DNA from: Leptolyngbyaceae cyanobacterium | GTDB taxonomy: Bacteria > Cyanobacteriota > Cyanobacteriia > Phormidesmidales > Phormidesmidaceae | NCBI GenBank assembly: GCA_965263355.1 | Contig: CBDHHL010000035.1 | Coordinates: 1 to 64,000 of the forward strand | Reading direction: 5' to 3' | DNA: 64,000 bases | Shown here: piece by piece, positions 13,295 through 64,000 of the stretch | Layout: each line of letters begins with the position of its first letter | How positions within the stretch are numbered: position 1 is the first letter of the stretch | Notes under the pieces: generated by a model | The model's database searches: none | What the model was told of the DNA's origin: nothing | The model's input: only the letters and a program-made list of their open reading frames with translations | Position numbers and translations under genes: made by a program

Positions 13295-13339
13295 AAGTTA
13301 TAACTGAATCAGTTAAGGCAAGGAGCCGAAAGAAAGATG
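13275..13339 (+). promoter_or_regulatory. Promoter-operator-RBS cassette, copy 1
   Basis: TTGACA-18-TATAAC, palindromes ATAAC(C)TCTAGA(A)GTTAT and TAACTGA-A-TCAGTTA, RBS AGGAG. 47 bp identical to 14342-14388. Confidence 0.85.
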
Positions 13340-13660
13340 ACAGCATTAGCCATTCTGAACACCACCATCGCTACCACTGATGGTGTATTCGAGGTCAAAA
13401 CTATTGACCTTGACACTGCCAAGGCCCTAGTCACGTCTAACTCACTAGACAGCGCAGTAGGGCATCAGTCCACTGCTGACGTGATGTCTACTCTCTTAGG
13501 GGTAGACATCCCCATGAATCGTCAAATGTTCGCTCAGAAGCCAGGTCAACAGGCCTTAGTTTTCAAGCTCAACGGACGTCCTCAGGAGGGGCAAATTATG
13601 AGCGCCGAGGAGATTGAAGAGATGGGTTACAGCTTTAAGCTGATGACCAGAACCGCATAA
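13337..13660 (+). CDS. acrIII-1: DUF1874 / STIV B116 / YddF family, AcrIII-1-type cA4 ring nuclease (anti-type III CRISPR)
   Basis: 107 aa with family motifs ILN, SAVGHQSTA (catalytic His), MNR, G..ALVFKLNGR..EG....EE. Confidence 0.85.
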   Translation: MTALAILNTTIATTDGVFEVKTIDLDTAKALVTSNSLDSAVGHQSTADVMSTLLGVDIPMNRQMFAQKPGQQALVFKLNGRPQEGQIMSAEEIEEMGYSFKLMTRTA

Positions 13661-57882: not shown

Positions 57883-58971
57883 ATGATGCATAGAATCCCA
57901 GAGCTACTTAAGCGGAACAGCCTGATAGGGGCTGCTATTGTTGGGCCAGACGGAAAGTTCTGGGATGTAAATGAGACTCTGTGTGAAATACTGGGTTATC
58001 AACGAGAAACGTTGCTGCGCCTAACGTTCCAGCAGATCAGCCATCCTGAAGATCTAACGCCTCAGGTCAACCCATTCCGCAGCGTAATCAATGGAGAACT
58101 TAAATCTTTCACGCTGAAAAAGCGCTACAAGCATGGACAAACAGCAGAATGGATCTCTTGCACGTTGCACTGCGAAGGATTCCATTCTGAGTCTGGAGAA
58201 TTCCTTTATTTCTTTTCCCAAGTCAGTAAGCTTGGCGACAAAGAGCTGACAGAGGTTGAAACACAAAGGCTTTCAGAAATAAAATACGCAATCAACAACA
58301 ACGGATTTGCCCTGCATTATCAGCCGATAGTTGACCTGAAAACCGATGAGACCGTTGGTTATGAGGCGTTGTCACGATGGGCAAAAGACAATGAATTAAT
58401 CTTCCCAGGGGATTTCTTGCCTTTACTGAGAAAGGCAAACAGTGAACACTTACTGTGCTACTGGGTAATTGAGCAAACCCAGGCAGATTCAATCAAGATT
58501 GGCCAGTGGATCAGCTTTAATATCAGCCCATTCACTCTAGCTAGAGCAGATTGGCACGATCAAAAGCTGCCTGTTAGAGGGCATATGGAGATATTGGAGA
58601 CTGAGGCTGTTTCTGAGGAGATTCAGAGCCGGATTCAGTCAGCTAGGCGGACAGGCGTAAAGATCGCCCTGGACGATTTTGGCACCGGATACTGCAGCTA
58701 CGATAGATTGCTGAAAGGCCAAGTTGACCTAGTAAAGCTCGATAGATCTATTATTAGTGGCCTGCCTGCTCGCGAATCCAGAGTAATGGTTGACGCAATT
58801 GTGGCGCTATCGCAAAAACTCAGCATCAAAGTTATCGCTGAAGGCGTGGAAACCCAGCAACAGGCCGACATGTTGAAAGCAATCGGCTGTGACATGGCGC
58901 AGGGCTATTTGTTCGGTCGGCCTGCGCCACTACCCGCGATCACTCGCTCTTCGTCGGGGGCCATTCACTAG
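57883..58971 (+). CDS. PAS-EAL protein (c-di-GMP phosphodiesterase)
   Basis: PAS (VN...C..LGY....L....HPED); EAL motifs YQPIV, EAL, NIS, EILE, DDFGTGY, KLD, AEGVE, QGYLFGRP. Confidence 0.9.
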   Translation: MMHRIPELLKRNSLIGAAIVGPDGKFWDVNETLCEILGYQRETLLRLTFQQISHPEDLTPQVNPFRSVINGELKSFTLKKRYKHGQTAEWISCTLHCEGFHSESGEFLYFFSQVSKLGDKELTEVETQRLSEIKYAINNNGFALHYQPIVDLKTDETVGYEALSRWAKDNELIFPGDFLPLLRKANSEHLLCYWVIEQTQADSIKIGQWISFNISPFTLARADWHDQKLPVRGHMEILETEAVSEEIQSRIQSARRTGVKIALDDFGTGYCSYDRLLKGQVDLVKLDRSIISGLPARESRVMVDAIVALSQKLSIKVIAEGVETQQQADMLKAIGCDMAQGYLFGRPAPLPAITRSSSGAIH

Positions 58972-60518: not shown

Positions 60519-60529
60519 TGGCAAAAACC

Positions 60530-60733
60530 TCAATCACCATTGTTTTTTAACGCGTCAAACAGGTTACTGACTGCTAATGCAGATAGCTCTATCCTGTTCG
60601 TCACCCGACCGTCCGTCGTCTCTATTAGCCTTCCCTGAGAAGTCTCAGGGTCTAGGTAAAGTGTGATTATCTGCTCGACTGATTGTGAGTCTACGGACTC
60701 ACGATAACTATGTCGAGATATAATTTCTATCAT
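60530..60733 (-). CDS. Small hypothetical protein
   Basis: 67-aa ORF. Confidence 0.45.
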   Translation of the reverse strand: MIEIISRHSYRESVDSQSVEQIITLYLDPETSQGRLIETTDGRVTNRIELSALAVSNLFDALKNNGD

Positions 60734-60811: not shown

Positions 60812-61140
60812 GTTTCAGCCCCTTGAAACGGATTGAAGCCTTGGCAGCGTATAGCACCATGCCCCGCAAATCAGGGAACGTTACAGTTTCAGTCCCTTGG
60901 TAGGGGTTGAAGCCTTGGCAGCTATCTGCATCATTACTTACTGCATTACTGCGATGATGTTTCAGTCCCTTGGTAGGGGTTGAAGCTTTGGCAGCTCAGG
61001 ACCGCATAGACCAGCTCAAGCCAATAACAGGTTTCAGTCCCTTGGTAGGGATTAAAGCTTTGGCAGCTTGGCTCATGGCTAATAGTTCGTTTCCACCAGG
61101 TGCGTTTCAGTCCCTTGGTAGGGATTAAAGCTTTGGCAGC
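60812..61140 (-). CRISPR. CRISPR mini-array: five 37-bp repeats, four spacers (37/36/35/36 bp)
   Basis: GTTTCAGTCCCTTGGTAGGG(G/A)TT(G/A)AAGC(C/T)TTGGCAGC at 60812 (degenerate), 60886, 60959, 61031 and 61104. The degenerate left repeat and minus-strand 3' GAAAC end imply leftward transcription. Confidence 0.97.
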
Positions 61141-61199
61141 GTAAACAGCTGCATCCCTTTAGCCGCAAGGCTTTTATGAGCGATTCTGGCAAAGCTCAG

Positions 61200-61465
61200 A
61201 AAATGGCAATTTTGCCAAAGCTTTAATCCCTGTTTTTCAAGGTTCTTCTTTTGGCCTCGCTTAGCTTTGCCAAAAAAAGTTGAGACTGTTCGCCATAGAT
61301 CCGGCGAATCTATAAGGGCCTTACGGACTCCTTTTGCTCCTATCTTGCCTTTCGGCTGGTGTTTATCGGTTTCCCGACAAAAGATACCCATAGCCCCCTA
61401 GAGAACCTTAGCGCTGAAGCCATCCAACAACGTTTCCGCTGCCTTGTCGCCCAAACTGCGATGTC
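61200..61465 (-). ncRNA. Putative tracrRNA in the array leader
   Basis: 19-nt perfect anti-repeat at 61213-61231; candidate minus-strand promoter TTGGCG-17-TAATAT (61497-61469). Boundaries approximate. Confidence 0.65.
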
Positions 61466-61513
61466 CTTATATTAGCGTGTTATATTTTGTACGCCAAGTA
61501 TTTTTTAATATAA

Positions 61514-61714
61514 ATGGGAAAAGAGAATAGAGAAGGCAGGATTTACGCGCGCATCAAGCAAAGCCGTAAACAAAAGCTAGAGCAGTATTGTAGACTTTGG
61601 GATATATCGATAGCAGACCTATTGGAACGCTTTATTGATATGCTGCCAGAGCTGCCGCAAAACGACGTACAAAATAATGAAGACGATCAAGGTAAAAGTC
61701 CAGCCGACTCCTGA
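61514..61714 (+). CDS. Ribbon-helix-helix regulator overlapping the effector start
   Basis: RIYARIKQSRKQKLEQYC....ISIADLLERFIDMLP. Confidence 0.75.
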   Translation: MGKENREGRIYARIKQSRKQKLEQYCRLWDISIADLLERFIDMLPELPQNDVQNNEDDQGKSPADS

Positions 61715-63398
61715 AACACTGATTAAATACGAGAAAATTTGCAGAGAGCTTGAATGGTTGTGGAACTATGTGAGGGCCGTAGCCTTACATAATCACTGCC
61801 TTGAATGGTATGCGTGGGCCGAGGGGAAAGGCGCTGACTTGTCAGGCTGCATTAGAACGCCGTTACGCTTTTCAAAGAGTGGCGGTTGGAATGGAGCGAC
61901 TTGTCAGATTGCTAAAGGGGGTCCGTATTTTAAGAAGTCAGATAAAGCTCCTTTAATCCACTATGACGATGGCAAAACGAAACAAGGCTATGAATTAGTA
62001 GCTGGGGATAAGCCATATGAGCCAATAAAGCCAGAGCGTCATAGATATCGCGAAGTCTCTTATTCAAGTAAAGGCAACTCAATGACCCGTTCCAGTAAAA
62101 GCACCTCAATAACCCGCGAGCTAAAAGGAAAAGGTTGGGGCCTAGACAATATGGCGTTACTAAATGCGTCACGAAGTTCTCAGGGTCTTGATGAATTAAC
62201 TTGCCATAGCGATTTTGTTGGAGGGCTACTAGCTGACTTTGAAGTTGCTTGGAAGGCTTATTTAGACGGGAAACTGCCCGCCAGAAAGCAGCCAAAGTAT
62301 AAGGACGGCAAGCAGTGTAAAATTAGCACGTTGAACAATAATCAAAAAGCCATCCCGTTCAAAAAAGGACAATTCGACGGTCAAGGCTTAGTTTTAGAAC
62401 CGTGCGATCGCAGCTATTCAAAAAGACTCGAAGGCTATGTAATAAAGACTTACAAACTGATATTAAAACCGAGTGGCTTCTATCTATGCCTAACTACTCA
62501 AAGTGAAGCGGAAGAAGAAAATAGATTAGAACTTAAACGACAAAAAAGAGTTTTAACCGCTATCAAGAAAAAAGTTATTGATGGCATTAAAGGGGAAAAG
62601 GAGCAAGCCAAGGCGTTAGCTAACAGTGAAGACTATCAAACGGCATTAGCCAAGAAAAAGTCAATAGAAAATGAGCTGCCATACTTGCTAATAGAAGACT
62701 CAAAATGCGCTAAACGAACCGGGCATATGGCGGGCATTGACCCTGGCGTTAAGGCAATTGTAGCGACTGACGAAGGTCATTTATTTAATCCTAACGAAAG
62801 CAGACAACGAATACACAATCATATTGAAAAGCTGCAATCCAAGCTTGATATTATGATTGAGAAAAATGATAAGCGGCTAGGACAAAAATGGAAGGGAGGG
62901 CAGCGGCGAGCCTCCAATAACGAGCAAAAACTTAGGGGCAAAATATCCAGACTTCATGAGCGAGCCGTTAATAGTTCAAATGCTTTCAATCATAAATTAT
63001 CAACCAGGTTAGCCAGAACTTATGATGTCATTGCTTGGGAGGCTACGGCGTTAACTAACATGGGGAGGCAGACAACGCCTAAATTAGCTGAAGATGGAAG
63101 TTATTACGAGCAAAACGGCAGAACAGCTAAGGCAGGATTGAACAGATCCTTGAAAATAGCCTGTATGGGCGACCTTAGAACTAAAACAAAATCTAAATTA
63201 GAGGAAGCCGGGAAATTATACATAGAGACGGAGGCTAGATACTCATCACAACGCTGTCATTGTTGCGGGGGAAAAGGCATCAGGCCAGCCCAAGATACGT
63301 TTATTTGCGTAAATGAGAGCTGTAGCCTATTTGAACAGAAGCAAAATGCAGATGTTAACGCCGCAAGGAACCACAAGAAAAGAGGAATTACAGAATAA
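61677..63398 (+). CDS. cas12: TnpB-derived type V CRISPR effector (~573 aa; Cas12f/V-U2 C2c8-like, subtype uncertain)
   Basis: MKTIKVKVQPT start; RuvC-I GIDPG, RuvC-II IAWEA, Zn finger SSQRCHCCG...CVNESC, RuvC-III NADVNAARN; adjacent array. Confidence 0.85.
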   Translation: MKTIKVKVQPTPETLIKYEKICRELEWLWNYVRAVALHNHCLEWYAWAEGKGADLSGCIRTPLRFSKSGGWNGATCQIAKGGPYFKKSDKAPLIHYDDGKTKQGYELVAGDKPYEPIKPERHRYREVSYSSKGNSMTRSSKSTSITRELKGKGWGLDNMALLNASRSSQGLDELTCHSDFVGGLLADFEVAWKAYLDGKLPARKQPKYKDGKQCKISTLNNNQKAIPFKKGQFDGQGLVLEPCDRSYSKRLEGYVIKTYKLILKPSGFYLCLTTQSEAEEENRLELKRQKRVLTAIKKKVIDGIKGEKEQAKALANSEDYQTALAKKKSIENELPYLLIEDSKCAKRTGHMAGIDPGVKAIVATDEGHLFNPNESRQRIHNHIEKLQSKLDIMIEKNDKRLGQKWKGGQRRASNNEQKLRGKISRLHERAVNSSNAFNHKLSTRLARTYDVIAWEATALTNMGRQTTPKLAEDGSYYEQNGRTAKAGLNRSLKIACMGDLRTKTKSKLEEAGKLYIETEARYSSQRCHCCGGKGIRPAQDTFICVNESCSLFEQKQNADVNAARNHKKRGITE

Positions 63399-63601
63399 TG
63401 CAAGCCTCAATCACCATCTCCATACGCTCAAAAACCCTGGCTAAAGCTCAACAGCTAAACATCCCGGTTGAAGTGATTTTGAGCGAGGAGCTATCAAGGG
63501 TGGCCGACAGGCTCCTGCTGCCTTTGATTCAGGAATACGGAATGAACTGCGATAGAACCGATTACGTCCCAAGCTGGATAGAGCAATCGGCCCAGCCATA
63601 A
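63398..63601 (+). CDS. Small RHH-like protein coupled to the effector stop
   Basis: TAATG overlap; ITISIRSKTLAKAQQLNIPVEVILSEEL. Confidence 0.5.
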   Translation: MQASITISIRSKTLAKAQQLNIPVEVILSEELSRVADRLLLPLIQEYGMNCDRTDYVPSWIEQSAQP

Positions 63602-63773: not shown

Positions 63774-64000
63774 TTGACCGCAAACAGTAGTTTCGACCCA
63801 TCTCAGGCCATTGGGTATTATCGTGTTTCGACGCAACGGCAGGAGCAAGAGGGCCATAGTCCCGAGCGTTATTTAGAGCGTCTTGAAGCGGTCGGCATTG
63901 CTCCTACTGATATTTATTCTGATGCTGAATCCGGCGGCATATTCGAACGCAAGGATTTACAAAAAGCATTAGCCAGGTTGAAAAATCCTAATAAGAAATA
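63774..64000 (+). CDS. Serine recombinase/integrase, N-terminal catalytic domain (truncated by the window edge)
   Basis: Manual translation from TTG: ...AIGYYRVSTQRQEQEGHS...IYSDAESGGIFERKDLQKAL. Confidence 0.85.
   Translation, partial: MTANSSFDPSQAIGYYRVSTQRQEQEGHSPERYLERLEAVGIAPTDIYSDAESGGIFERKDLQKALARLKNPNKK

Follow-up and report, generated by a model that had tools for sequence, protein, structure and literature searches.

By sequence comparison, the CRISPR locus near the end of the window (the whole 64,000-nt stretch of DNA analyzed here) comprises the RNA module and the effector of a phage CRISPR-Cas12p (type V-P) system, a shorter member of the Cas12p family with an inverted layout, and its leader contains a segment complementary to the first repeat, of a kind that recurs in other Cas12p cassettes. 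On the strength of structure predictions we propose, with a probability of roughly one half, that this leader anti-repeat pairs with the first repeat, likely opens its hairpin, frees its 3' arm for the tracrRNA and loads the newest spacer into Cas12p. The features of the locus are listed in Table 1.

Table 1. Features of the Cas12p locus in window coordinates.
Feature	Position	Strand	Evidence or remark
CRISPR array	60812-61140	-	five 37-nt repeats, four spacers of 35-37 nt
First (leader-side) repeat	61104-61140	-	repeat 5 of the array, most leader-proximal
Shortened cyanobacterial-type CRISPR leader, 134 nt	61141-61274	-	two deletions against relatives in the alignment; motif set as before host arrays
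Motif I-like GCCAGA at 61190-61185 (44 nt from the repeat); also proximal arm of 10-bp pair	61185-61196	-	
Weak terminator-like site: 5-bp hairpin, then short U run	61204-61217	-	overlaps last 5 nt of the anti-repeat
Leader-embedded anti-repeat, 19 nt	61213-61231	-	complementary to repeat nt 3-21; imperfect extension to 61242
Conserved leader motif GAACCTTGA	61237-61245	-	common to host leaders
Motif III TTGGC (61273-61269) and distal arm of 10-bp inverted pair	61263-61273	-	
Predicted Cas12p tracrRNA core, ~181 nt	61282-61462	-	family alignment, covariation, strand-specific G.U changes
Predicted tracrRNA 3' anti-repeat CAGTCTC, 7 nt	61282-61288	-	pairs repeat GGGACTG (nt 27-33); covariation
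Last tracrRNA hairpin	61289-61308	-	conserved, compensatory changes
Predicted pseudoknot anti-repeat GTTT	61453-61456	-	pairs repeat-terminal AAAC; 12/12 rows paired, one double change
Putative -10 box TAATAT	61469-61474	-	6 nt before inferred start; relatives have AT-rich hexamers there
66-aa ORF, possible ribbon-helix-helix regulator	61514-61714	+	ESM Atlas features 0.92-0.93 to CopG/RHH-named clusters, a lead only
cas12p-family effector, 573 aa	61677-63398	+	RuvC D355/E455/D559 and zinc finger intact

The effector matches the Cas12p structure PDB 9jfs over residues 1-570 (E 9.9e-107), and a profile of 35 sequences gave a Cas12p match at E 1e-272, with the next hit at 5e-12. The Cas12p residues D378/E478/D582 align to D355/E455/D559 (the 9jfs chain is offset by 128 residues), and these three positions, together with C527, C530, C544 and C549 of the zinc finger, are invariant in the 35 sequences. 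The Cas12p PAM readers D197/N261/Q262 align to D157/N222/Q223 of the window protein, and in the putative thioredoxin-binding pocket W44, Y45, W47, C76 (equivalent to C127), L55, L63 and I78 are kept, while W102 and F105 align to G50 and A53. The catalytic and PAM-reading residues and the thioredoxin-reactive C127 are those named in the main text of the Cas12p preprint (bioRxiv 10.1101/2025.01.20.633832). The protein falls within the 500-700 aa size range of Cas12p and, like its nearest relatives (P0001-P0013), is missing some 50 residues of REC along with the C-terminal tail. Membership in C2c8 (V-U2) was considered and rejected, the best NCBIfam match (NF038192) scoring 173.2 bits against a cut-off of 350.

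Phage genes in the window include those for terminase, portal, head protease and major head protein. No match to the Cas1, Cas2 or Cas6 families was found among 70 window ORFs scanned against Pfam, which were picked by hand with overlapping alternative frames mostly left out, and the phage may extend beyond the window. The named relatives are cyanobacterial contigs and Cylindrospermopsis phages, which suggests a cyanobacterial host. In the relatives the array lies mostly 295-517 nt downstream of the cas12p gene; an upstream, divergent array is found in the window and in one other lineage (L177, L178, L180 and L181).

Two small ORFs flank cas12p, at 61514-61714 and 63398-63601, the first of which has no match in Pfam, NCBIfam or PHROGs, and the segment 63402-63417 nearly repeats 60525-60540, on either side of the CRISPR module. 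The N-terminus of a serine recombinase (PF00239) is encoded at 63774-64000 on the plus strand, where it is cut by the window end; a TnpB next to a serine recombinase presumably recalls IS607. A STIV B116-like protein (PF08960, E 7.8e-28) is encoded at 13337-13660 (+); its family is that of the AcrIII-1 ring nuclease anti-CRISPR, so the phage may also counter type III systems. The phage further encodes a PAS-EAL protein at 57883-58971 (+; EAL E 9e-57), likely a cyclic di-GMP phosphodiesterase.

A start motif common to the tracrRNAs of all relatives occurs on the minus strand of the window at 61461. With the numbering of the Cas12p preprint, in which the pseudoknot G is nt 7, the predicted tracrRNA start falls at 61462, within one base of the minus-strand start near 61463 given in the original prediction. 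A sigma-70 scan did not pick up the putative -10 box. A 19-pair structure, composed of the first stem, the pseudoknot with the last 4 nt of the repeat, the last hairpin and six pairs between the tracr end and the repeat, was assessed on a 12-row alignment, in which 94.5% of 218 cells are paired and 12 of the 19 pairs show double changes, scores that are favored by the structure having been drawn from the window and by the kinship of the rows. None of 500 shuffles reached these values, and slid partners gave 28-51%. In L177, the pseudoknot is changed on both sides. The tracr-end anti-repeat pairs its cognate repeat at 66 of 72 positions, against 53.5 with permuted partners (p 5e-5; 12 non-redundant of 16 cassettes, L084, with no recognisable last hairpin, and L178, a duplicate of L177, having been dropped from 18). 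The 35 nt from this anti-repeat onward pair far more strongly in L002, L003, L083 and the second cassette of L009, at -29 to -43 kcal/mol, than in the window, at -17. The tracr core alone folds no better than shuffles (z -1.4), and Rfam returned nothing above its gathering score, with two weak CRISPR-DR10 matches.

Contigs from runs X1-X3, which sample a related population and amount to at most two samples of one study, differ from the window at 13 listed places in 61211-61405. Six X1-X3 changes fall on predicted pairs: five keep the minus-strand pair, which in three cases becomes a G.U pair with no valid counterpart in a plus-strand RNA, and the sixth breaks a predicted pair with a spacer. 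In the centroid hairpin at tracr nt 85-98, the changes at 61377 and 61366 are compensatory. Together, these patterns support a structured leftward RNA from the locus. The single leftward transcript originally proposed for tracrRNA and array is supported as regards the leftward tracrRNA, and a joint tracr-leader-array precursor is likely, there being no terminator between the tracr end and the leader and a precedent in Cas12k.

The repeats combine a type I-D-like hairpin (TCCCT/AGGGA) with a following CTGAAAC, and the orientation of the array was read from the family repeat 3' end, GAAAC, and from the tracr position. The segment 61213-61231 is, as had been reported for it, the exact reverse complement (19/19) of repeats 4 and 5 (61047-61065 and 61120-61138) and mismatches the others, agreeing with repeat 3 at 17/19 and with repeats 1 and 2 at 16/19; about 4e-8 such matches are expected by chance for a 37-nt repeat and a 322-nt upstream region. 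Beyond a 4-nt bulge the match resumes to 61242 (CAAGG, repeat nt 24-28), where it is best for repeat 1. The reading of this 19-mer as the tracrRNA anti-repeat bound by the effector did not hold up: the anti-repeats bound by the effector would be those at 61453-61456 and 61282-61288, and a canonical tracrRNA anti-repeat was rejected for a segment that lies 51 nt past the tracr core, in a host-type leader, and pairs repeat nt 3-21 and not the 3' end of the repeat that stays in the crRNA.

Leaders of relatives measure about 200 nt (202-220) between the tracr end and the first repeat and hold the motifs TTGGC, GAACC..GA, GGCTGAAATG and GCCAAA, a set that also precedes 14 other arrays in six cyanobacterial genomes. 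The same four motifs precede L244, an array that we take from its repeat to be of Cas12k type. In type I-D leaders, motif III (TTGGC) and motif I (GCCAAA, about 50 bp upstream of the repeat) are reported to raise spacer acquisition (PMC6607411). Both are present in the window leader, motif I with one mismatch, with the proximal spacing kept and the distal spacing shortened, and a deletion of about 33 nt seems to have removed the stretch separating two AAGGGAT elements, the distance from motif to repeat being 96, against 129. It is within this leader that the 19-mer is found, with GAACCTTGA ending 5 nt upstream of it and the repeat beginning 72 nt downstream. The 10-bp inverted pair described as flanking it (61187-61196 and 61263-61272) is exact in sequence; as an RNA stem it was rejected on a predicted pairing probability of 5e-8. 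Its arms hold motif III (61273-61269) and the motif I-like site (61190-61185), which makes it a pair of known leader DNA motifs. Leader-like patterns searched in genomes led to an array at none of the 20 loci examined, and hence to no host leader resembling that of the window among those searched.

Complementarity of leader and repeat was assessed across the family in a slot, the 45 nt after GAACC..GA, which was compared with nt 1-24 of the cognate repeat against dinucleotide shuffles (p<0.05). Pairing with the cognate repeat was significant for 8 of the 13 Cas12p cassettes and for 1 of the 14 host leaders (median z -3.1 and -0.5, p 0.002), where the cassette rows are kin and the eight positives represent some four or five independent lineages; three of 16 cassettes without the motif were left out, and two of 16 host matches, a duplicate of L002 and a non-CRISPR repeat, were dropped. 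A whole-leader version of the test gave 9/16 cassettes against 0/6 host leaders. Slot pairing is stronger with cognate than with non-cognate repeats (p 1e-4 over nine non-redundant cassettes, p 0.002 over the eight rows without the window), and all seven cassettes with AATCCC hairpin-arm repeats are slot-positive, against one of six others. Because the core AGGGATT is common to the repeats, the variable 5' part was tested alone in five AATCCC-type cassettes, where the cognate set ranks 3 of 120.

In folds of whole precursors, repeat nt 1-24 are predicted to pair chiefly with the slot in the window (0.68), L081 (0.69) and L174 (0.64); the slot is displaced by a long contiguous tracr anti-repeat in L002 (0.00) and L003 (0.06) and shares the pairing in L083. 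L172 has a short contiguous tracr anti-repeat, yet its slot is predicted unpaired (0.00). The longest exact match in relatives is 11 nt, the 19/19 of the window being the most perfect. In five of the 13 cassettes the slot match is not significant, and L006 combines the leader of L008 with a different repeat, so that the element is evidently not needed family-wide. As far as these comparisons go, a leader anti-repeat that tracks its repeat is a recurrent element of Cas12p cassettes.

Viral contigs yielded no match to the repeat pattern of the window, and a single-protein scan of them confirmed none of nine candidate stretches. A search with the tracr-start pattern gave 53 stretches, mostly chance occurrences without an array, and among those listed the ones with an array were largely loci already in the comparison set. 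In several phages a cas12p gene is accompanied by two or three arrays or tracr-array cassettes, some of them with different repeats (L006, L009, L011 and L177-L181). Other loci (the Cylindrospermopsis phages L175, L184 and L185, as well as L160, L161 and L179) hold cas12p-family genes and tracr-start motifs with no regular array, followed in some cases by a single or degenerate repeat-like unit, possibly a fixed guide.

The window spacers had no target in the window itself (best 22 of 35-37), in the compared loci or in annotated phages, and spacer 4, the only one of the four in a scan of viral contigs, had none among 25 seed matches (best 24 of 36). A search with 242 family spacers produced four distinct matches, two of them with a GTN PAM. 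Some Cas12p arrays appear to target the cas12p or related effector genes of other phages (an L174 spacer against L013:4445-4477 and an L172 spacer against L173), these matches showing 0 mismatches with a GTG PAM and 4 mismatches with GTA. A spacer of L009 matches the cas12p gene of its own locus (L009/L013:4025-4060), beside a non-GTN TTG.

Co-folding of leader and repeat, which the original prediction had put forward as a check, yields the expected 19-bp duplex: the 19-mer is predicted to pair with the first repeat at 0.86, and the hairpin of the repeat itself to form at 5e-5. When the 19-mer was scrambled 40 times, in folds that leave out pseudoknot and protein, predicted pairing of the tracr anti-repeat fell from 0.71 to 0.29 and the repeat hairpin rose from 0.00 to 0.29. 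A phage with no cas1, cas2 or cas6 among the ORFs scanned in the window would borrow a host-type leader and repeat in order to be fed by host Cas1-Cas2. We infer such a supply of spacers, which fits the GTN PAM common to type I-D and Cas12p, the presence of GTN beside two of the four family spacer matches, and the different spacers found between the same repeats in X1-X3, a pattern that amounts to spacer turnover only. A host-type repeat would also be a substrate for host Cas6, which needs the hairpin. Cas6d leaves an 8-nt handle, and the type I-D PAM is GTN, as described in PMC10212523; a Cas6 cut would thus leave 8 nt of repeat, and Cas12p pairs with 10-11. Under the proposed mechanism, the 19-mer would open the Cas6-type hairpin of the first repeat, masking it from host Cas6 and protecting the first crRNA, the freed 3' arm would pair with the short tracr anti-repeat, and the long leader-repeat duplex would be the site at which a host RNase trims the leader away. 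A leader element acting in cis leaves the use of repeats 1-4 unexplained. More tentatively, and as a possibility that we would not call probable, phage Cas12p arrays that took over a type I-D leader and repeat of the host may have acquired a split anti-repeat. Part of it would have shifted from the tracrRNA to the leader, there shielding the first repeat from host Cas6 and passing the newest spacer on to Cas12p, and template switching from the leader would go on rewriting the repeat. If true, this would be a leader-repeat duplex that activates, and does not silence, in a type V system, together with a visible mechanism of repeat turnover.

The match might also be a neutral by-product at the DNA level, in which motifs for Cas1-Cas2 or host factors happen to be complementary to a repeat arm, template switching between arms 72 nt apart copies leader sequence into the first repeat, and acquisition spreads it, the RNA duplex being immaterial. 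The direction of change agrees with this account. Repeat 4 differs from repeat 2 by three changes, each of them toward the leader sequence and two arising at once, and repeat 1 carries TTTCAAGG as the leader does. In one X1-X3 lineage, three adjacent changes of the first repeat (61117-61119) match the next three leader bases (61232-61234), giving a 23-nt perfect match, assembled from contig tables (a loose end at 61120 in X1/X2, and X3 record 19, whose nine differences are these three plus six listed ones) and not from one long read. Moreover, the leaders of L002, L003, L081, L172 and L174 have, at the homologous place, the sequence of about 14 of the 19 nt; the 19-mer is thus largely conserved leader sequence, and the match can arise by DNA-level copying. 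Against a purely neutral origin, the slot dominates the predicted pairing in three of four cassettes that combine an AATCCC-type repeat with a short tracr anti-repeat, the match occurs in 1 of 14 host leaders, whose repeats are similar, and the slot of relatives, imperfect and bulged, lies 105-125 nt from the repeat. Taken as a whole, we consider the neutral account somewhat unlikely. The two accounts are also compatible: the mutations may come from conversion and the outcome be maintained by selection. The 19-mer is unchanged in X1-X3, an invariance that is not significant at 16 substitutions in 348 nt overall, and 61212 has changed to the base that pairs repeat nt 2. The commoner repeat type in X1 and X2 carries a G-to-A change at 61062 that breaks the DNA identity and leaves a G.U pair in the RNA, and some X1-X3 contigs join the trailer straight to a repeat-4-like copy, clouding the age order of the repeat types. 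The coupling of leader and repeat is real, but its direction seems to be that of repeats approaching the leader sequence and not of the leader approaching the repeats. The earlier idea that the anti-repeat co-evolves with the newest repeats is accordingly retained insofar as leader and first repeat change together, and disfavored insofar as it would have the anti-repeat follow the repeats.

The remaining alternatives give the 19-mer another role in the RNA. Transcription could partly stop at 61204-61217 and release an extended tracrRNA, some 260 nt long, with an anti-repeat split into 7 and 19 nt that would pair any repeat in trans, and repeats 4 and 5 best. Such an RNA would account for the use of inner repeats, the leader segment pairs all five repeats at -30 to -39 kcal/mol, and the terminator-like site directly after the 19-mer keeps its stem in X1-X3 while its loop changes. 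We nevertheless judge it unlikely, as the stem has 5 bp and a 4-U run and overlaps the anti-repeat, the region holds three terminator-like sites against 1.3 expected by chance, the relatives are without such a hairpin at that place in the leader alignment, and the functional Cas12p tracrRNA described in the preprint is 185 nt long (bioRxiv 10.1101/2025.01.20.633832). A silencing role, in which the duplex would keep the first repeat from being processed, as leader-repeat hairpins are reported to do in type VI and II-A systems (PMC13187072), and here delay use of the newest spacer, seems very improbable: the same source reports that no hairpin was found in VI-A, which has the repeat-then-guide layout, the first repeat is needed in the likewise repeat-then-guide Cas12p, and with the predicted duplex in place the 3' arm stays free and tracr pairing goes up. 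The natural fused guide of the original prediction, an uncut tracr-leader-repeat-spacer RNA serving itself as the guide with the 19-mer as the anti-repeat of the effector, is barely credible. The whole fold is stable (z -4.0) and brings the tracr end and the repeat together, but 141 nt of leader lie between them, which makes an uncut guide unlikely; in addition, the Cas12p structure, as described, models only 10 nt of the repeat, at its 3' end, the covarying anti-repeats are those at 61453-61456 and 61282-61288, and cassettes without a leader match exist.

The proposed pairing of the leader anti-repeat with the first repeat would show how a minimal phage nuclease could use host spacer acquisition without losing guides to host processing. 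The locus is, moreover, a small and testable example of joint change in leader and repeat, and its Cas12p, short by nature and served by a tracr anti-repeat of 7 nt, is a lead for compact guides. The Cas12p preprint leaves the host unknown, and its main text, in which neither 'leader' nor 'cyanobacter' occurs, does not discuss leaders (bioRxiv 10.1101/2025.01.20.633832); the locus described here points to cyanobacteria as the hosts of the family.

Compared with Cas12p ('Cas12 hacker', V-P; PDB 9jfs and 9jg3) as described in that preprint's main text, the locus shares full-length homology, effector size, phage context, catalytic and PAM-reading residues, a 37-nt repeat, a tracrRNA of about 180 nt and the GUUU:AAAC pseudoknot at nt 7-10. 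It differs from that description in an effector of 573 aa from which the C-terminal tail and some 50 aa of REC are absent, in a tracr-array module that lies upstream and divergent with a small ORF between, and in a tracr anti-repeat down to 7 nt beside a perfect 19-nt anti-repeat in the leader. C2c8 (V-U2) of cyanophage CL131 (PMC6293099) resembles it in having a TnpB-like cyanophage effector beside an array and in supplying the best NCBIfam match, but the CL131 protein matches only the C-terminal 37% of the effector, at 32% identity. Like type I-D leaders (PMC6607411), the window leader combines motif III (TTGGC) with a GCCAAA-like motif some 50 bp from the repeat; unlike host leaders of this type, it measures about 134 nt against 202-220, and it holds an anti-repeat that only 1 of 14 host leaders has.

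Cas12k (type V-K) of cyanobacteria is reported to make tracrRNA and array as a joint precursor (PMC9938897, PMC12416283), and it shares with the window the single direction of tracrRNA, leader and array, two short anti-repeats to the repeat 3' end and the leader motifs (L244). Cas12k differs in serving a transposon, and in the single Cas12k-type leader examined no match to the 5' half of the repeat emerged (p 0.68). A joint tracr-array precursor is thus already known, and a leader anti-repeat is apparently new for type V, none having been found for type V or Cas12p in the literature searched, to which subscription journals and the supplementary alignments of the preprint did not belong. Leader-repeat hairpins of types II-A and VI, in turn, are described as silencing the first repeat, a source of extraneous crRNA (PMC13187072; Liao 2022 via PMC13187072). 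The window leader resembles them in that it is predicted to pair with the first repeat in competition with the repeat's own hairpin. Those systems have the guide before the repeat and silence an extraneous crRNA. In the window, the tracrRNA forms its pseudoknot with the 3' end of the repeat, so that the guide follows the repeat, and the leader pairing is predicted to help and not to block.
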